Under the pieces are notes generated by a model. It was not told the DNA's origin, searched no databases, and saw nothing but the letters and a program-made list of their open reading frames with translations. 44,513 nt of DNA from a virus (lineage: Duplodnaviria > Heunggongvirae > Uroviricota > Caudoviricetes), in IMG/VR virus record IMGVR_UViG_2703718788_000013. One strand, given 5' to 3'. A program made the position numbers and the translations under genes. Positions 892 to 40,640 of the stretch are shown piece by piece (within the stretch, counting starts at the first letter, position 1; each line of letters begins with the position of its first letter).

Positions 892-981
892 GGAGAGATG
901 CCGGAGCGGCTGAACGGACCGGTCTCGAAAACCGGAGTGGGGGCAACTCCACCGGGGGTTCAAATCCCCCTCTCTCCGCCA
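892..981 (+). tRNA. serU: tRNA-Ser (anticodon CGA), serU-like; prophage attachment site (attL side)
   Basis: 90-nt cloverleaf GGAGAGATGCCGGAGCGGCTGAACGGACCGGTCTCGAAAACCGG...TCTCTCCGCCA with long variable arm and CCA end; anticodon loop CTCGAAA; integrase gene begins about 50 bp downstream. Confidence 0.9.
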
Positions 982-1026
982 AAATTCAATCACTTACACA
1001 TCATTAAGTCAGTGACAAAAATCACA

Positions 1027-1057
1027 CTTGGAATTACTTGGAATATTTTCTTGGAAT
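1027..1057. repeat. Three direct repeats of CTTGGAAT at the 3' end of int; candidate integrase arm-type (P') binding sites
   Basis: CTTGGAAT at 1027, 1037 and 1050, between tRNA-Ser end and int stop codon (1034-1036). Confidence 0.4.
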
Positions 1058-2059
1058 ATTATCAGGTAACGGGACATCAAGTGTTGGTGAAACTTTAACC
1101 TTTCTGTCATAGATTAGCACTTGCCCTTCGGTTTTGTGACCAGAGAAAAGTTGCTTATCCCGGCTGCTTCCTTCATAGTCTGAAATTCCTTTCGCCTTCA
1201 GATCATGAAAGGTGAAGTCGGTTAAAATACCTGAAATTTTGCCTGCGTGATTTCTTGCTTCTACCCACATTTCGTTAAAACCTTTGTACATATATCGGTT
1301 GCCATATTGATTGCTGATTACATAGGCAGATGTTGGTAACTGTTTTGCTTTTTCGATCGCCGCCTGTAATCGTGGACTCCATGCTTTTATCTGTTTTTTC
1401 CCTGTTTTCCCTTGCTGGATAAAGATCCCGTCGTTTCCAATCTGCTCCCATTTCAGTGATAACACATCGGAAACCCTCGCTGCACACAGATAGGCAATTT
1501 CCATTGCGATAAAAACAGGAAGAGGTGCAACACTTAATACTGCCTGGTATTCTTTGTCGGTTACATATCGTTCGCGGTTTTTGGCCTTGAATTTACTTAC
1601 ACCTGCACATGGGTTACCCTTCACGTACCCTCGCTCATACCCCCAACTGTAAACGCGGGACATACTGCTTTTTTCATGGTTGGCTTGCGTTTTACTCTGT
1701 TCCCCTCTCTTGTCCATGTATCGACGGATGTGTTCTGGTTTTATGGAATCTGCCGGCACCTTACCGAATACGGCAAGCAACTTTTTTTGATGTTGCAGAT
1801 AATCTTTTTGTGTTCTTGGACTGAGGTCACTGTAATAGGCGCTGGCGAGGAATTTTTCCCACAAGCGACCGAATGTCATTGCGCGATCGCGATTATTTAC
1901 AGTTTCCTCATACTTTTTCCATAAAGCAGCTAAACCATCCTTGATGGCGGTTAGTGTGACAGATTCTCTGGATGTTGGTTTCCATACATAACTATATTTA
2001 TTTGGGTATACATTTGGAGGTAATTTTTCGTGTTCAGGATTTTTCCTTCGTCTTCCCAT
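1034..2059 (-). CDS. int: Phage integrase, tyrosine recombinase (lambda Int family)
   Basis: 341-aa ORF adjacent to tRNA att site and downstream of xis; start codon overlaps xis stop (TGATG). Confidence 0.9.
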   Translation of the reverse strand: MGRRRKNPEHEKLPPNVYPNKYSYVWKPTSRESVTLTAIKDGLAALWKKYEETVNNRDRAMTFGRLWEKFLASAYYSDLSPRTQKDYLQHQKKLLAVFGKVPADSIKPEHIRRYMDKRGEQSKTQANHEKSSMSRVYSWGYERGYVKGNPCAGVSKFKAKNRERYVTDKEYQAVLSVAPLPVFIAMEIAYLCAARVSDVLSLKWEQIGNDGIFIQQGKTGKKQIKAWSPRLQAAIEKAKQLPTSAYVISNQYGNRYMYKGFNEMWVEARNHAGKISGILTDFTFHDLKAKGISDYEGSSRDKQLFSGHKTEGQVLIYDRKVKVSPTLDVPLPDNIPRKYSK

Positions 2060-2320: not shown

Positions 2321-4792
2321 TTAAAAATCAGCCTGACTCGGGATCAGTTTTTGCCAGATAGCTGAAACGTATTTTGCTTGGTAACGAGCGTCATCAAGTG
2401 CATTATGGCGCTCACCTTCGAATGGGATAGCAGTTCTGGCATCGAAGTCTATGGCTTTCCCCAGCTCAACGATTGTGCGTATATCGCGATCGTTGTAGTA
2501 ACGCCACGGGCAGGGGATCCCCTGCCGTTCGTATGAACGGCGCAAAATCGTGTTGTCGAAGTTTGCTCCATTTCCCCAGACCTGAACAAAAAATTCACCG
2601 GAGTTTTCGTCGATAAATTCCCGCAATTGTAACAGTGCATCATCTAACGGGATTTCATCGGTCATAATGGCAGATTGCGCTTCGCGTGATTGCTTAAGCC
2701 ACCATTTAATGGTGTCCCGATCAATGACTCCGCCAGCAGTTTCCAGATCGACAGTCTTACTAAATTCCGGTCCCATATCTCCGGTTTGCGGATCGAAAAA
2801 TATTGCACCTATTGAGATAATCGGGGCATCAGGATTTTTTCCCATGGTTTCAAGGTCGATCATCAGATGAATCCCCGCTCTGCTGGTGGATGTGAGATTA
2901 TGATGACCGTTCATCTTAATTAAGGGATCTGACGCCTCGCCAGTTTCACTATCGCTGGCATGATGCTGATTGCCGCCAGTGTTCTCCTTGTGCTGATGCG
3001 CAGTGCCTTCCATTTCCTCCGGAACATTTTCCTGAACTTCAGGCTGATTCTCTTCATCGAATATTTCCTGGTATGTTGCGTCGCCCATCACCGCACCACA
3101 ATCAGGGCAGCTACCGCCGCCGGTCTGACCGCAGGCGGTGCAGGCTTTTTCCGGCTCCTGTTGCGCTACTGGTTCAACCTGTTTCGTTTCTGGCTCGTTT
3201 TGTTGCGCATTTGGGCTGTTTTGTTCCGTTTTTTGGTCGTTCTGTTCCGATTCTTGCTGGTTCTGGTTTACAGAGTCGCGGGTTTCAATCCCCTTCACCC
3301 ATTTCGGATCATTCGGGTCGCTAATCCCTGCAACAAATTCTCCGCGAGAGGCAGCAAGCAACTTATCGGCGTCAGGCTGGCTGATATTGGCTGCCTGCAT
3401 AATTTTGTTTACTTCTTCAGCGGTAACTTTTACCGGCTCTGGTTGTGCGGTCGTGTCAGATGCACCAGTATTTTGTTGTGAACCTGAGTATGTACTGTTT
3501 TTGCGGGCAAAATATTCTTCTTTCGTGATTTCAGTAGCCCCTGCAGTCAGCGCCTTATTCAGACCAGAAAGTTTGTTTGCGCGACCATATTTTTCGCCAT
3601 CCTTATCTGTGAAGAGGAAGTAGAACGGCCCTTCACGCTCTACAGATGGTTCGACTTCCACTTTGCATTCGGTTTTTTCGTTGTCCGGAATTGCCGTTTC
3701 CACTGCATCAGTTTCTGGTACTGGCGACGAGAGAGTATCAGTTGCGCTCTGATTTGTTCCTTCATCTTCAAACACGCCCTTTGTAGTCAGATATTCAGTA
3801 ATGTATTTGTTCAGTGCCACAGGGGTTTTGTGAATGTCGATCGGACGTTCACGGACAAGGCCAAAAATAGTCTGGCGGTCGTAGCGAAGGGCATCAGGCT
3901 GTTTGCGCATTGATGCCGAGATACGCTTCCAGTCTTCGCGGTCGTTGTCGATAACTTCATTTTTTGCCCAGCGATGGATGCTGCCGTCAATGTTTCCGGC
4001 ATCAATGTCACCAGGCCACAGAGCGTAGGCCAGTTCATCATCCAGTGTTTTCCATGTCTGCTTGTATTCGCGACGAATGGTGGCAGTGGCTGGGGGGATT
4101 TTCGCTACTGAGTTTTCAGTGTTCTGCCGGTTGACTCTGGCGCGGGCAAGATCAACAACAGACGTGTATTTCCCGGTTTCTTTGCGTTCGGCTTCGCGAC
4201 GTTTTTTCCAGGTGCGTAATTCTGTCTGGATCTCAGGCCATTTTGCTCCCGGCTTACATTTATGTTTAACCCACCCGATGGCGAGCAGCTTGAGCTCTGA
4301 ATACATGACGTTAACTTCAGGCATTTTCATCAATGCCTCAACGATATGCCCGTCGAATGTTGCCATGTCCTCCTGCAGTAATTCCTGAGCACTAATCACC
4401 ATATCAACGGTGATGTTTTCACATGTACCGAACTTAACCAGGACCGCGTTCTGTACTTCAAGGGACAGCTTGTTAAAATTGACGTTCATCGGATCGGATT
4501 CTGGTTCGACCGGAATAAAGGAAGCGGATTCCTCATCCCAGCGGTTTTCCTGCATATATTCGGTATCCCAGGAGTCGATAGCAGGGCGGGGCATGCCGGG
4601 TTTATCCTCGCAGACAAGAAATTTATAAGCGCAGTCCTGAGCAGCCGGATATTGCTCCAGGAATTGCCAGGTAAATTTGGCACGGGCGCGGCGTTCGTCA
4701 CCGGCTTCAATGGCAGTGGCTACAGCAATTGCACCTTCTTCCTTTATTGCCTGTTCGTCCGGAATGGCGGCGCAAATAAAGACTTTACTCAT
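2321..4792 (-). CDS. Large exonuclease-family protein with C-terminal DnaQ-like DEDDh 3'-5' exonuclease domain (RecE position)
   Basis: 823-aa ORF, GAGG ribosome-binding site 10 nt upstream; C-terminal motifs IDLETMG (Exo I), WGNGANFD (Exo II), HNALDDA (Exo III); central acidic/Q-rich linker with CxxC...CxxC (CTACGQTGGGSCPDCG). Confidence 0.8.
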   Translation of the reverse strand: MSKVFICAAIPDEQAIKEEGAIAVATAIEAGDERRARAKFTWQFLEQYPAAQDCAYKFLVCEDKPGMPRPAIDSWDTEYMQENRWDEESASFIPVEPESDPMNVNFNKLSLEVQNAVLVKFGTCENITVDMVISAQELLQEDMATFDGHIVEALMKMPEVNVMYSELKLLAIGWVKHKCKPGAKWPEIQTELRTWKKRREAERKETGKYTSVVDLARARVNRQNTENSVAKIPPATATIRREYKQTWKTLDDELAYALWPGDIDAGNIDGSIHRWAKNEVIDNDREDWKRISASMRKQPDALRYDRQTIFGLVRERPIDIHKTPVALNKYITEYLTTKGVFEDEGTNQSATDTLSSPVPETDAVETAIPDNEKTECKVEVEPSVEREGPFYFLFTDKDGEKYGRANKLSGLNKALTAGATEITKEEYFARKNSTYSGSQQNTGASDTTAQPEPVKVTAEEVNKIMQAANISQPDADKLLAASRGEFVAGISDPNDPKWVKGIETRDSVNQNQQESEQNDQKTEQNSPNAQQNEPETKQVEPVAQQEPEKACTACGQTGGGSCPDCGAVMGDATYQEIFDEENQPEVQENVPEEMEGTAHQHKENTGGNQHHASDSETGEASDPLIKMNGHHNLTSTSRAGIHLMIDLETMGKNPDAPIISIGAIFFDPQTGDMGPEFSKTVDLETAGGVIDRDTIKWWLKQSREAQSAIMTDEIPLDDALLQLREFIDENSGEFFVQVWGNGANFDNTILRRSYERQGIPCPWRYYNDRDIRTIVELGKAIDFDARTAIPFEGERHNALDDARYQAKYVSAIWQKLIPSQADF

Positions 4793-4915
4793 TTTGTTTT
4801 AACCTCATGACATATTTAAGGATGAACAAATCCCTGCCATTGCTGGCATATAAGAATCAAATCTGATGTATTCATTAAGCTGAATGTCGTATTGTGGCAG
4901 TTATTTTATTACTGC

Positions 4916-5137
4916 TCACCATGACTCTGCTTTTACAGGTAAACCATCACGACCAAGGAAGACTTTTATCATGGTTTCCTTAATACAGTGTTGTGTGGAA
5001 AAATCACGAATATAGAGCCGTTGTTTTTTAATGTTGTTTACCGAAGCAATATATGTTCTTCCTTTATGAATAACATAATCACCGGGAGTCACGCACTGAC
5101 GAGGAATCTCATCAGTTCCGAAGTGATGAGCAATCAT
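4916..5137 (-). CDS. KilR-like small protein (putative cell-division inhibitor), 73 aa
   Basis: ORF-track 4916..5149; GGAG ribosome-binding site favours internal ATG at 5137 ([12 protein letters not shown]...); size and position next to exonuclease gene match Rac kilR; identity recalled from memory only. Confidence 0.5.
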
Positions 5138-5311
5138 AATTATCTCCATTTTTACAAATGAACTTTGTTGATGCGGTGCCTGGTGCCTCCAGGTGACGTT
5201 AACCAGTTAACAATTAACGCCGGATACAGAGAATCCACCCATAACACTGTTTTTGGTTTTAACTGTTCCGCGTGCGCTTAGCCGCATTCACCGCATCACA
5301 AAATTCACTTT

Positions 5312-5369
5312 AAAAAGGGCGGCAGAGCAGTCACGGAGTAAAACTGATACCGCCAAACGCCACCAGAAA
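5312..5369 (-). ncRNA. dicF: DicF-like small RNA (ftsZ translation inhibitor family) with intrinsic terminator
   Basis: Minus-strand sequence TTTTCTGGTGGCGTTTGGCGGTATCAGTTTTACTCCGTGACTGCTCTGCCGCCCTTTTT matches the remembered E. coli DicF sequence with one mismatch; GGCGG...CCGCC stem then U-run; no ORF in the region. Confidence 0.7.
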
Positions 5370-5705
5370 ATTGATAACAGAGGGCGTTGTAGCGGGGTTG
5401 TCACTTAAGCGTATGGTCAACCTGACAACCCGGTGTCCTCAACGGGGAAGGAATAACCCCGCCATACTTACCGCCGCGCCATTTCGCGGAGTGCCACAAC
5501 CGGAAGCGCACGGTCGAATTAAATTTAACGACACCGTACAGAGAGACCAATTTCGCCGTGCGCTTTCGCGTTATGCCTTGGCTTTTCAGGGATATATCCT
5601 TTCAGTAAACTGTCAGTACCGGATTCTTATCCGTGTCCGGCGCACGACCACACGTGACAGCGTGTTGGTCTCCATTTTTAACCCAGAACCTCAATGGAGG
5701 ATAAA

Positions 5706-5915
5706 ATGCCAAACAAAAAAAGAAATCCGCTTATTGAAAAACAGATTGAATGCCTGGTAAATCAACTCAGGCAATCAGGGTTATTAAAAACTCATTCAGA
5801 GTTGAGGCTCACAGAATCAGCATTCGACGATAAATTAAATAATGTCCTTTATAATGGCATTATTGATTTTAATCGTTCTGTTGGTCGCCGCGGCCCTGCT
5901 GGTGTTTCCTTATAA
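5706..5915 (+). CDS. Hypothetical 69-aa protein, encoded antisense to the early-left operon
   Basis: ATG at 5706 preceded by GGAGG 5 nt upstream; ORF-track 5694..5915. Confidence 0.45.
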   Translation: MPNKKRNPLIEKQIECLVNQLRQSGLLKTHSELRLTESAFDDKLNNVLYNGIIDFNRSVGRRGPAGVSL

Positions 5916-6554
5916 TTACCAGTCAATCCAGAGCGGACCGTGTTCAGCGTAAATATAACTGTACACATCCAGATTATATTTGTGGTCTGTTAAGAACAGG
6001 CCGCAAATACATGCCGAAGCTTCCAGGGCAGCGGCTCTGTTACTGAATAACCATGTAGCAACATTCCAGCGTTTTTCTGCATCCCAGTCTTTCTCAAGGC
6101 CTGATACCATGAAGAAACCGTTAGTGTTGCCATCAAATAATTCTGTTTCCAGATTTTTAAGCAATGCCTGATGGACTCTTGCCAGGTATTCCGCCGGAAT
6201 TTCGCCACGAATTCTGATGAGATTGTCATAAACAAACATGTTCCCCGCATATGGCGATTTTTCTTTCTTGTTTTTTAAACCAGCATCATGAGCAAACTGA
6301 TCAATTTCTTCTTCCGTTGGTTTCGTATTGATGTTTTGCGCTGTCGTTTCTGCAATTTTATTTGCCACACTCTCTGAGTCGTGTTTATTTACAGACGCAC
6401 AGAAATACAATCCGGTAAACGCATCGCGCACATTACGAGCCATATTATCAGTGTCTTTTTTCGTTACCGATTCCAATGCAAGTTCGTTCAGACGATGACG
6501 AAGTGTGTGTGCTGCAATCTCCTGGATTGAAGTAGGTAAATCTTTAAATTCCAT
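5916..6554 (-). CDS. Hypothetical early-left protein, 212 aa
   Basis: ORF-track 5916..6566; ATG at 6554 (MEFKDLPTSIQ) has GAGG 7 nt upstream and follows the stop of the upstream ORF. Confidence 0.6.
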   Translation of the reverse strand: MEFKDLPTSIQEIAAHTLRHRLNELALESVTKKDTDNMARNVRDAFTGLYFCASVNKHDSESVANKIAETTAQNINTKPTEEEIDQFAHDAGLKNKKEKSPYAGNMFVYDNLIRIRGEIPAEYLARVHQALLKNLETELFDGNTNGFFMVSGLEKDWDAEKRWNVATWLFSNRAAALEASACICGLFLTDHKYNLDVYSYIYAEHGPLWIDW

Positions 6555-6565
6555 CGTCAACCTCA

Positions 6566-6796
6566 TCAGTCAGAGTTTCTTGCTAACCAGCGATGCGCGC
6601 CAGCTTCGGTTTTAAACGTTTTACTTTTGGTATACGTCATCGCGGTGAACGTGCCGTCCTGGTTGGGAAACACGCCGTACACCAGAGATTCGTTGTTGCC
6701 AAGATCGATAGTATCCATGCTGACCTCATTTCCCCTTAACGCCGGGGTAGCGGAACAAAAACCTGCTGCATAGTTAAAGTTGAACCCTGCCGTCAT
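6566..6796 (-). CDS. Hypothetical early-left protein, 76 aa (first gene after putative pL)
   Basis: ORF-track 6566..6796 minus; tightly coupled to downstream ORF. Confidence 0.5.
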   Translation of the reverse strand: MTAGFNFNYAAGFCSATPALRGNEVSMDTIDLGNNESLVYGVFPNQDGTFTAMTYTKSKTFKTEAGAHRWLARNSD

Positions 6797-6899
6797 GTTC
6801 TTACGCCTCGGGCTGGCTACTTAACCCCTGACCACTGCCTGGTAACTCGAAGTATTGCCCTGCGTGCTGTGGGGCGGGGTGGGTTGGTATGTTGTCAAG

Positions 6900-6913
6900 G
6901 TAACAAGAGTTAC
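6900..6913. promoter_or_regulatory. OL-like operator, GTAAC-N4-GTTAC palindrome
   Basis: GTAACAAGAGTTAC between repressor gene end and first early-left ORF; same motif as the two sites in the cI-cro intergenic region. Confidence 0.5.
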
Positions 6914-6955
6914 CGGAAAAGTCAATGAGATGTTGCAAAAGGTACATACAGGAGC

Positions 6956-6981
6956 GCAAAAAACCCGCAATGAATGCGGGT
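6956..6981 (-). terminator. Intrinsic terminator downstream of repressor gene
   Basis: Minus-strand AACCCGCA / TGCGGGTT 8-bp stem followed by TTTTTT, just after repressor stop. Confidence 0.6.
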
Positions 6982-6987
6982 TCTGAC

Positions 6988-7662
6988 TCAGTCTAAATAT
7001 TGATGTATTTGTGAAACTTTACCTTTAATAGTGTAACCACCATTCAGTTCAATGGGTTTGTAAAGCGGATTCAGTGACAGCAGATAGATGTTTGGTCCGT
7101 CAATCGCAACTTTTTTTAGTGTTACGTTCGGCGTTCCTTCCAATTGGATTAAGATTATTTTTCCCACCAGTTCTCTAATGTTACTTGAGCATGGCGTGAT
7201 CAGCACGGTAGATCCGTCGGGGATGGTTGGGAGGCCGTTAGAGTTCGTCATCGCATCTCCCTCAACGCGCAATAAAAAAGAGTTTTCAGCGGTTTTTGTC
7301 ATGACATCAACCCAATTCTTAATACCAGGAATCTCGGTTACTGGGCAACTCATATCCCAATAACCAGCCTGTTCCCACGTTAAAACGGGCAACCGGGCGA
7401 TGTTGTCACTAATGTAAAGGTACTGATTCAGACGCAGATCGTCGGTTTTATCGTGACCATCCTTTCCATAAAGAATCCATTCAGGAGATTTGGAAAGCAA
7501 TTTTGACAGCAGATGCAAATTCTCACCGTCAGGTTTTGAAGAGCCATTTTCCCATTTTGTTACGGATACGCGAGATATGCCGATTGCTTTCGCAACCTGC
7601 TGTTGAGTTAGTCCAACGTCTTTTCGACGATTCCGAATACGTTCGCTGATAGTGTTTTTCAT
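6988..7662 (-). CDS. cI: CI-like repressor (HTH_XRE N-terminal domain plus S24 LexA-like C-terminal domain)
   Basis: ORF-track 6988..7761; C-terminal region aligns by eye with lambda CI (VEGDAMT versus VEGNSMT, TLKKV versus TFKKL, QAG linker); start placed at ATG 7662 to leave a 91-bp operator region before cro (ATG 7704 is an alternative). Confidence 0.8.
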   Translation of the reverse strand: MKNTISERIRNRRKDVGLTQQQVAKAIGISRVSVTKWENGSSKPDGENLHLLSKLLSKSPEWILYGKDGHDKTDDLRLNQYLYISDNIARLPVLTWEQAGYWDMSCPVTEIPGIKNWVDVMTKTAENSFLLRVEGDAMTNSNGLPTIPDGSTVLITPCSSNIRELVGKIILIQLEGTPNVTLKKVAIDGPNIYLLSLNPLYKPIELNGGYTIKGKVSQIHQYLD

Positions 7663-7724
7663 GTAACCAATGTTACCACCAAGTGATGTTACTGTGGTTG
7701 ACATCTTTATGTAACTATTGTTAC
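7663..7724. promoter_or_regulatory. OR-like operator region with GTAAC-N4-GTTAC palindromes between cI and cro
   Basis: GTAACCAATGTTAC at 7663-7676 and GTAACTATTGTTAC at 7711-7724, plus a GTTAC half-site near 7688; divergent cI/cro starts flank it. Confidence 0.55.
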
Positions 7725-7753
7725 CCTTTTGTTCGAAATAACAGGAGAGTTTT

Positions 7754-7969
7754 ATGTTCAAAGATGATGTTCTGCGCTATTTCAAAAAAAAGCGACTAGT
7801 AGCTGAGGCTCTTGGAATTTCACATGTGGCTGTTGTGCGGTGGAAAGCAGTTATTCCCAAACTTCGCGCAATGGAGCTGGATGAAATTACTAACGGTGAA
7901 TTGAAATACAATCCAGAACTTTACAAGAAGCAGGATAGCACCTCGAACGAAGGAAAGAATGATTCATGA
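7754..7969 (+). CDS. cro: Cro-like small HTH regulator
   Basis: 71-aa ORF divergent from cI, AGGAG ribosome-binding site at 7743-7749; HTH-like segment RLVAEALGISHVAVVRWK. Confidence 0.7.
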   Translation: MFKDDVLRYFKKKRLVAEALGISHVAVVRWKAVIPKLRAMELDEITNGELKYNPELYKKQDSTSNEGKNDS

Positions 7970-8391
7970 AAATCAAGCATGAACACATCCGCATGGCGAT
8001 GAATGCCTGGGCGCATCCGGACGGCGAAAAAATACCGGCTGCGAAAATTACCAAAGCGTATTTCGAACTGGGAATGACGTTCCCGGAACTGTATGACGAC
8101 AGCCATCCGGAAGCTCTGGCTCGCAATACTCAGAAAATTTTCCGCTGGGTAGAGAAAGACACCCCTGATGCAGTTGAAAAAATTCAGGCGTTGTTACCAG
8201 CGATCGAAAAGGCAATGCCACCTTTGCTGGTGGCCAGAATGCGCAGCCACAGTTCAGCTTATTTTCGGGAGCTGGTGGAAACGCGGGAGCGATTGGTGAG
8301 AGACGCTGATGATTTTGTCGCAGTGGCAATCGCCGGTTTCAATCAGATGAACCGTGGTGGCCCGGCAGGAAATGCTGTGGCAGTACATTGA
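7966..8391 (+). CDS. YdaT-like protein (CII-position regulator)
   Basis: 141-aa ORF translationally coupled to cro (ATGA overlap); N-terminus MKIKHEHIRMAMNAW resembles Rac YdaT as remembered. Confidence 0.5.
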   Translation: MKIKHEHIRMAMNAWAHPDGEKIPAAKITKAYFELGMTFPELYDDSHPEALARNTQKIFRWVEKDTPDAVEKIQALLPAIEKAMPPLLVARMRSHSSAYFRELVETRERLVRDADDFVAVAIAGFNQMNRGGPAGNAVAVH

Positions 8392-11775: not shown

Positions 11776-11986
11776 TTTCATATTGGCGAGGTAACGGTAG
11801 TTAAGTAGAATGGCTGTGGGTGCTTGAGGCTATCTGCCTCGGGCATGAACACCAACGGCAGATAGAGAAAAGCCCCAGTTAACATTACGCGTCCTGCAAG
11901 ACGCTTAACATTAATCTGAGGCCAATTTCATGCTAGACACATGTAGGTTAGCCTCTTACGTGCCGAAAGGCAAGGAGAAGCAGGCT

Positions 11987-12142
11987 ATGAAGCAGCAAAA
12001 GGCGATGTTAATCGCCCTGATCGTCATCTGTTTAACCGTCATAGTGACGGCACTGGTAACGAGGAAAGACCTCTGCGAGGTACGAATCCGAACCGACCAG
12101 ACGGAGGTCGCTGTCTTCACAGCTTACGAACCTGAGGAGTAA
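11987..12142 (+). CDS. hok: Hok/Gef-family type I toxin
   Basis: 51-aa product MKQQKAMLIALIVICLTVIVTALVTRKDLCEVRIRTDQTEVAVFTAYEPEE, near-identical to remembered HokD/RelF; AAGGAGAAG ribosome-binding site; 8-bp hairpin at 12151-12170. Confidence 0.85.
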   Translation: MKQQKAMLIALIVICLTVIVTALVTRKDLCEVRIRTDQTEVAVFTAYEPEE

Positions 12143-14907: not shown

Positions 14908-14983
14908 GGCCCTTTAGCTCAGTGGTGAGAGCGAGCGACTCATAATCGCCAGGTCGCTGGTTCAAATCCAGCAAGGGCCACCA
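14908..14983 (+). tRNA. tRNA with CAT anticodon, ileX-like (tRNA-Ile2 or Met)
   Basis: 76-nt cloverleaf, acceptor GGCCCTT/AAGGGCC, anticodon loop CTCATAA, CCA end; resembles remembered E. coli ileX. Confidence 0.8.
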
Positions 14984-14984
14984 A

Positions 14985-15061
14985 CCGCCACTAGCTCATC
15001 AGGAAAGAGCGTCAACCCTTTAAGTTGAGTGTGCGAGGTTCGAGTCCCCGGTGGCGGTCCA
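14985..15061 (+). tRNA. tRNA-like gene, apparent anticodon TTT (Lys-like), non-canonical features
   Basis: Acceptor CCGCCAC/GTGGCGG, anticodon stem TCAAC/GTTGA, loop CCTTTAA (C at position 33), T-loop TTCGAGT, CCA end; A-C mismatch in T-stem. Confidence 0.55.
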
Positions 15062-15063
15062 GT

Positions 15064-15139
<76 letters not shown>

Positions 15140-15142
15140 TAT

Positions 15143-15217
<75 letters not shown>

Positions 15218-18238: not shown

Positions 18239-18320
18239 TTCTGTGGAGGGGGGAGTATTGTTCCCTTATTAAGGGCAGGTAAATTTAGAATGGTAATCTG
18301 TAGATAATTGGAGGTCACTT

Positions 18321-18635
18321 ATGCTACATGATCACCTGGCTGAATGTCTGGAGAAAAAAGGACTGTACCGGAGAGCGGCTGAACGATGGGCAAAAGTGAT
18401 GGTACAGCTAAGTGATGATCAGAAAAGAAAAATCGCGGCACAGAAACGAGCAGAGTGTTTGCGTAAGGCGCGCCGGACTTCGGTTGCACCGGTGAATCTG
18501 ACAGAAATAAAGCAAGCGGTCAACAGACTACATTCTGAGTTGGGAATGGGATTTGAAGAGCGGCGGATATTCCGACGATATAAAGGGACAGGAGAACAGA
18601 ATACGTCCGGAAACGCGCGGTCAAAAAAATGCTAA
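18321..18635 (+). CDS. PerC-family transcriptional regulator (Pch-like)
   Basis: 104 aa; GGAGG 7 nt upstream; N-terminal ...LEKKGLYRRAAERW... matches remembered PerC/Pch pattern. Confidence 0.6.
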   Translation: MLHDHLAECLEKKGLYRRAAERWAKVMVQLSDDQKRKIAAQKRAECLRKARRTSVAPVNLTEIKQAVNRLHSELGMGFEERRIFRRYKGTGEQNTSGNARSKKC

Positions 18636-18675
18636 AAAATATCTGAGAAAGTTATTGCCTGTTACCATAATAAAA

Positions 18676-39999: not shown

Positions 40000-40590
40000 A
40001 TGCCATTGATAACATCCAGCCTTTCATCAAATGTTGCTTTGCAGAGTATTGAAATATTACGTGAAGCTGCCAGACAAAACCTGATTACGAAAGCTATTAC
40101 TATAAATGGGCAGAAAGTTGGTATTCATTATTATCACCGCCCTGACGTTTTTCTAGTTTCTGGTTGTAAGGATGGGATGTTAAAAACATTATTAGAGTTA
40201 GGGTTAAATGGTAGCAATGAGTCAGCCAAAAGGCTTCGTTCATGGCAAATTTCCTCTGTAATTGATACTCATCTGAGTTTTTTACCATTAGGTATATGCT
40301 ATAAAATACTTTCAAGTTCTTTTCCTGTACATTCGGAAGAGGTTTTTTTTCCAGAAGAACATCTCAAGTGTCCAATAATATTAGATGCTCCAGATAATGG
40401 TGTTTTTATAAAGAACTCTGTAAGTGCAAAAGTTTGTAACCTATATGATAAAAATGCAATGTTAAAGTTAGTTATATCTGGTTCTCCACATCCATTAAGT
40501 AGAGAGCCAATAACAGAATCAATGATTATGAGAAAAGATGAATGTTATTTTGATCCCAAAACAGAGTCTTTTGTTGTAAATGATGTTTAA
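40000..40590 (+). CDS. nleG: NleG-like type III effector (U-box E3 ubiquitin ligase family)
   Basis: 196 aa in AT-rich DNA; C-terminal region HLKCPIILDAPDNGVFIKNSVSAKVCNLYD...SPHPLSREPIT resembles NleG U-box domain as remembered. Confidence 0.6.
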   Translation: MPLITSSLSSNVALQSIEILREAARQNLITKAITINGQKVGIHYYHRPDVFLVSGCKDGMLKTLLELGLNGSNESAKRLRSWQISSVIDTHLSFLPLGICYKILSSSFPVHSEEVFFPEEHLKCPIILDAPDNGVFIKNSVSAKVCNLYDKNAMLKLVISGSPHPLSREPITESMIMRKDECYFDPKTESFVVNDV

Positions 40591-40640
40591 TTTTTTTATT
40601 GGTGTTACTTTTAGTGGACTAAGTTGAAGGAGTGCGATAA

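Follow-up and report, generated by a model that had tools for sequence, protein, structure and literature searches.

Does the stretch between positions 4916 and 5369 of a phage genome carry two inhibitors of cell division in one early operon, an RNA of the DicF family and a protein of the KilR family? A first-pass annotation, made from the letters alone, had proposed this for a record of Caudoviricetes DNA of 44,513 nucleotides (IMG/VR IMGVR_UViG_2703718788_000013), which at its full length is called the window here. Our comparisons confirmed the observation and supported both family assignments at the level of sequence. We read the locus, very probably correctly, as a division-inhibition module in the PL-type operon of a lambdoid prophage, in which a leader, DicF and spacer of Qin type are combined with a kilR gene of Rac type that replaces dicB-ydfD.

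The prophage and its early-left operon

The window matched positions 2903137-2947649 of the genome of E. coli strain 377323_2f (NZ_CP039404.1) with 99.99% identity (3 mismatches and 1 gap). The matching element is a lambdoid prophage with a full set of head, tail and lysis genes, located at a tRNA-Ser gene beside mtfA. The features of the window that bear on the locus are the following.

1009-2059 (minus strand) and 892-981 (plus strand): integrase region and prophage insertion site at tRNA-Ser beside mtfA
2321-4792, minus strand: exonuclease of 823 aa, downstream in the operon (Pfam Rv2179c-like; 5' part a ydfE homologue)
4916-5137, minus strand: kilR (kil), KilR-family FtsZ/cell-division inhibitor of 73 aa (NCBIfam, PHROG, identity to K-12 KilR)
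5138-5311, minus strand: structured spacer, the kilR 5' UTR (conserved in Qin, Rac, an O157:H7 prophage and the window)
5164-5247, minus strand: pseudogene row 'DicB, incomplete' of PGAP; spacer in the Qin dicB frame, not a gene
5312-5369, minus strand: DicF small RNA (5' single-stranded seed, terminator hairpin GGCGG...CCGCC, U-tail; A10G allele)
5370-5646, minus strand: non-coding leader preceding DicF (homologous to the region between ydfC and dicF in Qin)
5706-5915, plus strand: ORF of 69 aa (WP_001133037.1, phrog_4274), unknown function
5916-6566, minus strand: protein of 212-216 aa (phrog_2151), unknown function
6566-6796, minus strand: DUF1391/ydfA-like gene (93% identical to ydfA)
6988-7761, minus strand: repressor with DicA-like HTH and S24 LexA-type peptidase (Pfam HTH_3, Peptidase_S24)

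The genes on the minus strand follow one another in the order repressor, DUF1391/ydfA-like gene, phrog_2151 protein, DicF, kilR, exonuclease, DUF4224 gene and integrase. DicF stands in an early operon by the immunity region, after the ydfA-like gene and the DicA-like repressor. The placement of the pair in the early-left operon was upheld: repressor and ydfA-like gene precede the pair, and exonuclease and integrase come after it. The repressor scored 81.4 bits against the DicA subfamily model of NCBIfam, under its cut-off of 101; PGAP starts it at 7704 and names it 'LexA family protein'. It presumably silences the leftward early operon. A consensus scan of positions 4700-8000 detected no sigma-70-like minus-strand promoter in the interval that separates the first early gene from the repressor, and PL was not located. 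A consensus scan of the same region for terminators passed over that of DicF because its loop is longer than the scan allows.

Three features of this operon were observed in passing. The 69-aa ORF on the plus strand lies a short distance upstream of the DicF leader and converges on the PL transcript; its transcription would run antisense to the early-left transcript. The exonuclease is of hybrid build. The RecE (exonuclease VIII) model is matched only in its middle part, by residues 218-626 and with a score far under the cut-off; residues 642-813 form an Rv2179c-like 3'-5' exoribonuclease domain and not a RecE nuclease, and no recT follows. The integrase is marked as frameshifted by PGAP in the near-identical genome, and the window carries an ORF of 341 aa at 1034-2059 (minus strand); since the integrase is called frameshifted, the prophage may not be fully functional or may be unable to excise.

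The DicF RNA and the kilR reading frame

Scanning of the whole window at the Rfam gathering thresholds placed the DicF model (RF00039) on the minus strand at 5317-5368 with 76.4 bits (E = 3e-15), against a gathering score of 48. The match ran over model positions 1-52 of 52, with all consensus pairs formed and zero non-canonical pairs flagged. A leading U and the U-tail extend the RNA to 5369-5312, in agreement with the coordinates proposed earlier for a DicF-like RNA with a terminator. Its letters in the window are UUUCUGGUGGCGUUUGGCGGUAUCAGUUUUACUCCGUGACUGCUCUGCCGCCCUUUUU. A single base change, A10G, separates this RNA from dicF of E. coli K-12, and positions 11-58 are the same at all bases. 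The comparisons that had been recommended, with dicF itself and with the Rfam model, both identified the candidate as DicF. The exact A10G allele (best hit of at least 99% identity) was found in 30 of 3,959 matching E. coli records, and nearly all of the remaining records were one base off the A10G RNA.

The 3' part of DicF that pairs with ftsZ, taken as the region described in PMC5069750, is intact in the window by its identity to K-12. When DicF was paired with the K-12 ftsZ leader in RNAduplex, 155 of 500 shuffled sequences did equally well. Since the duplex energy did not separate DicF from the shuffles, we base the claim of ftsZ pairing on the identity to the K-12 sequence. The RefSeq/PGAP annotation of NZ_CP039404.1 has no DicF ncRNA row between a hypothetical protein and kil.

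The kilR frame starts with an ATG at 5137 and ends with the stop codon at 4916-4918, which gives 73 aa; its GGAG Shine-Dalgarno sequence lies upstream, at about 5147-5144. An alternative in-frame ATG at 5149, which the list of open reading frames takes as the start of this frame, would give 77 aa. This start was rejected: it overlaps the Shine-Dalgarno sequence and is used neither by PGAP nor by K-12 KilR. The NCBIfam profile NF008465, 'FtsZ inhibitor protein', matched the ORF with 139.7 bits over positions 1-73 of 73 (curated cut-off 92 bits), and PHROG 294, 'Kil protein for bacterial septation inhibition', matched it with E = 7.9e-33. The alignment with KilR of K-12 Rac (b1352) was gapless, 73 against 73 aa, with 81% identity, and the N-terminal 22 and C-terminal 15 residues were invariant across the three sequences aligned. 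In the near-identical genome RefSeq already names the ORF kil (WP_000560212.1). The family score well above its cut-off and the end-to-end identity bear out the proposal, originally made from size and position, that the ORF is KilR-like. The Pfam search of the ORF returned no family, whereas NCBIfam and PHROGs each have one; a search for a solved structure of any KilR relative found none.

The neighbourhood of the gene is not that of Rac, kilR-ydaE-racC-recE-recT: ydaE, racC and recT are absent from the window, and the 823-aa exonuclease with the Rv2179c-like domain comes directly after kilR. Membership in the KilR family is unaffected by this, since the protein family is not defined by gene context.

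Qin and Rac blocks and the spacer that joins them

To place the locus we aligned the Qin and Rac loci of K-12 with the window and mapped the boundaries by blastn. Leader, DicF and spacer (window 5646-5157) aligned with Qin (L003 2603-3094) with 92.5% identity; in Qin the block starts 60 nt past ydfC and stops 16 nt short of the dicB ATG, and the homology ends at window position 5157. A second Qin-like block, window 4877-4026, matched the ydfE pseudogene with 87% identity. Between the two, kilR occupies the place of Qin dicB-ydfD, and the ydfE-homologous 5' part of the exonuclease marks the right-hand boundary of the swap. The sequence in common with Rac, window 5322-4901 (82% identity), begins at the 3' arm of the DicF terminator and runs through kilR. 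On the evidence of these alignments, the locus is a natural recombinant in which the leader, DicF and spacer of Qin type were joined to kilR of Rac type.

The likeness to the Qin dicBF operon (ydfABC-dicF-dicB-ydfD) extends to its order, in which a DicA-type repressor is followed by a ydfA-like gene, a small RNA and a small division-inhibitor protein, with ydfE-like sequence next. DicF is one base off, and leader and spacer are retained over 490 nt at the identity given above. The two loci differ in the protein slot, which holds dicB-ydfD in Qin and kilR in the window; with kilR in that slot, the protein-level hit would be one of KilR on FtsZ, in place of the DicB-MinC-ZipA route of Qin. They differ also in that Qin has ydfB and ydfC where the window has the phrog_2151 protein and the 69-aa ORF on the opposite strand, and in the S24 peptidase domain of the window repressor.

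With the kilS-kilR locus of Rac the window has in common the kilR ORF with its Shine-Dalgarno sequence and, further upstream, the spacer and the terminator 3' arm, as well as the position in an early-left operon with an exonuclease gene downstream. The body of the small RNA is KilS (b4833) in Rac and DicF in the window. In addition to the genes already named as absent, the window is without the opposing sieB, and the C-terminal domain of its exonuclease (Rv2179c-like) is different. KilS is a small RNA from the kilR 5' UTR that has been verified by northern blotting (PMC8175672). We considered whether the small RNA of the window could be KilS and rejected this assignment: the alignment follows Qin DicF, beginning with the leader and continuing as far as the terminator's 5' arm, only the 3' arm and the sequence downstream are common to Rac, and Rfam agrees. 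The Rfam search of the Rac locus detected no DicF. KilS (L004 6406-6503, K-12 Rac) and DicF have a common terminator core, GGCGG.AUCAGUUUU...CCGCCCUUUUU, while each has its own 5' body and loop. From their sequences they look like diverged alleles of one locus and not like unrelated insertions.

We then counted how often each combination occurs by megablast searches of 5,426 complete E. coli genomes. The chimeric queries consisted of the specific part of the small RNA and the inhibitor ORF, so that a coverage of 80% needs both halves in one place. The counts below are of genomes, not of independent events, and are lower bounds at the sensitivity of megablast.

DicF-DicB: 3,702 of 5,426 genomes
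KilS-KilR: 1,458 of 5,426 genomes
DicF-KilR: 126 of 5,426 genomes
KilS-DicB: 1 of 5,426 genomes

As a recombinant form of a well-known module of two inhibitors, DicF-KilR is in the minority but is well represented in public data. Escherichia phage Evi carries DicF, spacer and kil in the same arrangement (99.3% identity over 454 nt). A prophage of O157:H7 strain 7.1_Anguil also has DicF (75 bits) followed by kil. The O157/O145 prophages differ from the window in that their DicF has A10 and another substitution, their kil allele is 81% identical in amino acids, and ydaE-recE-recT follow downstream.

DicF had been described as lying immediately upstream of the ORF. The order is correct, but the two do not abut: a spacer of 179 nt separates the last annotated base of DicF (5317) from the kilR ATG (5137), or 174 nt (5311-5138) when it is measured from the end of the U-tail (5312). 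According to the alignment this spacer is common to Qin (dicF-dicB), Rac (kilS-kilR), the O157:H7 prophage and the window. It is predicted to be closed by a stem of about 28 bp, with the 5' arm at 5316-5289 and the 3' arm at 5178-5149, which encloses several hairpins and whose arms extend a few bases past 5138-5311 on both sides. The RNAalifold consensus of the four spacers contained 60 pairs, 4 of them with compensatory changes, although a consensus of four related sequences is weak structural evidence. The long stem is retained in all four, where the differences are G-U pairs, and an inner hairpin has two compensatory changes in Rac; the long stem was also present in the fold of a single sequence of 581 nt. 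This model suggests that the stem is a likely RNase III site, and a long perfect duplex that starts with the U-tail of DicF agrees with the RNase III cut published for the full-length dicBF mRNA (PMC5069750). Since the 3' arm ends at the kilR Shine-Dalgarno sequence, cleavage there would also set the 5' end of the kilR mRNA.

The incomplete DicB that PGAP reports between DicF and kilR was considered as a dicB remnant and rejected. In Qin this peptide is encoded in a frame that stays open up to the dicB ATG and is in register with it; the homologous frame of the window stops before kilR, and neither the dicB coding sequence nor an intact dicB (62 aa) follows the spacer. The 'DicB fragment' is explained by the conservation of the spacer, whose frame happens to be open upstream of dicB in Qin, so that PGAP reads a conserved 5' UTR as coding. 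Reading the locus as DicF plus KilR mends the annotation on two points, the missing DicF and the spurious 'DicB fragment'.

The locus is an ordinary Qin/Rac recombinant that follows a recognised pattern, that of dicF-dicB in Qin, with kilR as the substituted gene. It can be regarded as already known, since both families are characterised, kil is in RefSeq, and the pairing occurs in more than 100 complete genomes and one sequenced phage. In the literature searched, which did not reach back to the early primary work, we found no explicit account of the DicF-KilR pairing or of the A10G allele. The combination counts and the spacer stem are small additions to what is known. If our reading is right, lambdoid prophages keep a two-slot module against FtsZ, composed of a small RNA and a small protein, whose parts can be swapped over a structured spacer common to them. 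Work on DicF alleles or on the regulation of KilR could start from the combination counts and from the A10G allele.

Proposed expression of the module and alternative readings

Expression, processing and phenotype of the module are inferred from the K-12 homologues. DicF of K-12 base-pairs with ftsZ to repress its translation directly and in an Hfq-dependent manner, and it pairs with ftsZ through its 3' part and acts on xylR through its 5' end (PMC5069750). The 5' end of Qin DicF is made by RNase E, its 53-nt form by termination and its 72-nt form by RNase III; the latter comes from the full-length dicBF mRNA and extends past the 53-nt form by about 19 nt (PMC5069750). KilR disturbs FtsZ function, and a weakening of NusG/Rho-dependent termination unmasks it (PMC10798246), and formation of the FtsZ ring is prevented by kil of Rac (PMC3961180); the function of KilR has been characterised in K-12 only (PMC3961180, PMC10798246). 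The earlier statement that both families target FtsZ is in accordance with this literature on the K-12 homologues (PMC5069750 for DicF; PMC10798246 and PMC3961180 for KilR).

By analogy, the DicA/LexA-type repressor would hold the operon off in the lysogen; in Qin a PL-like dicB promoter is under DicA repression (PMC6832061). Derepression, for which the S24 peptidase domain suggests SOS as the trigger, would give a long leftward transcript. [quoted passage not shown] On read-through the spacer would fold into the long duplex, and a cut by RNase III would yield a longer DicF and a kilR mRNA with a short leader. The features of the window that bear on such processing are the sequence identity of its leader and the predicted long stem. 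Together with Hfq, the 3' part of DicF would pair with the ribosome-binding region of ftsZ and reduce FtsZ, and the 5' seed would target other mRNAs (xylR, pykA). KilR protein would stop the formation of the Z-ring, and division would be halted by two hits on FtsZ, one at the level of RNA and one at the level of protein.

This scheme has both inhibitors expressed. It could instead be that only DicF is normally made and that the terminator, perhaps with the help of Rho, insulates kilR, which would be a silent toxic passenger unmasked when termination fails. The strong hairpin and U-tail directly upstream of the spacer would suit such an arrangement, K-12 kilR is expressed on NusG repression with read-through (PMC10798246), and the counterpart position in Rac gives a separate small RNA, KilS, possibly from its own promoter (PMC8175672). 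Qin has the same terminator and spacer, however, and yet makes a full-length dicBF mRNA that is processed by RNase III (PMC5069750). The conservation of spacer and Shine-Dalgarno sequence in Qin, Rac, O157 and the window also argues that the downstream ORF is in use, and we consider an insulated kilR unlikely. Another possibility concerns the RNA. In the predicted minimum free energy fold of isolated A10G DicF, positions 6-12 pair with positions 46-52 in the 3' arm of the terminator (-18.5 kcal/mol, against -15.9 kcal/mol predicted for the canonical fold of K-12 DicF). This fold could sequester the 5' seed and alter the activity of DicF on 5'-seed targets of the xylR/pykA type, leaving a narrower or weaker regulator; regulation of xylR does use the DicF 5' end (PMC5069750), and the allele is rare. 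In the 581-nt precursor, however, the canonical terminator hairpin is predicted, and the thermodynamic difference of 2.6 kcal/mol ignores Hfq and co-transcriptional folding. Phage Evi DicF likewise has A10G, so this is not obviously a dead copy. An altered DicF of this kind seems to us quite improbable.

The module might also be kept for a role other than division, such as superinfection exclusion or metabolic reprogramming, with FtsZ inhibition as a side effect. DicB, which kilR replaces here, guards against lambda infection via ManYZ (PMC6832061), and exclusion genes typically lie, as this module does, close to the immunity region. Metabolic genes are among those that DicF controls, and ftsZ regulation alone does not account for the toxicity of DicF in K-12 (PMC5069750), which means that division arrest may not be the selected function. 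No such role is reported for KilR in the literature searched, however, and no feature of the sequence bears on it; we judge this explanation to be improbable to much the same degree as an altered DicF. We hold it very improbable, finally, that the spacer is a dual linker, which would split the small RNA from the inhibitor mRNA and also serve as a homology patch for independent shuffling of the slots, with co-adaptation of the pairs and retuning through A10G. Were this true, the occupants of the small RNA slot, DicF or KilS, would have been exchanged independently of those of the protein slot, DicB or KilR, the 3,702 and 1,458 genomes against 126 and 1 would mirror co-adapted pairs of RNA and protein, and A10G DicF with the kilR allele of the window would be a compensatory retuning of the small RNA. 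The reading that we prefer remains the module of DicF and KilR, with both directed against FtsZ.

Several other genes of the prophage were noted. Type III effector cargo lies at about 40000-44260 (plus strand) and comprises an NleG-family gene, a gene for a HECT-type E3 ubiquitin transferase and nleC; a gene for a PerC-family regulator is found near 18320-18640. The cargo and the regulator suggest an attaching-effacing E. coli host. In such an effector-carrying host, filamentation by both routes would be the expected result of prophage induction or of weakened transcription termination. A hok/sok type I toxin-antitoxin system was detected at 11818-11992 (plus strand; Rfam sok, 115.3 bits, gathering score 59), with the hokD CDS, annotated in the matching genome, at about 11987-12142 (plus strand). 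Four tRNA genes (Ile, Lys, Thr and Gly according to PGAP) stand at 14908-15214 (plus strand), after the Q antiterminator gene and before the lysis genes. A tRNA cluster in such a place is typical of late regions like those of Stx phages.
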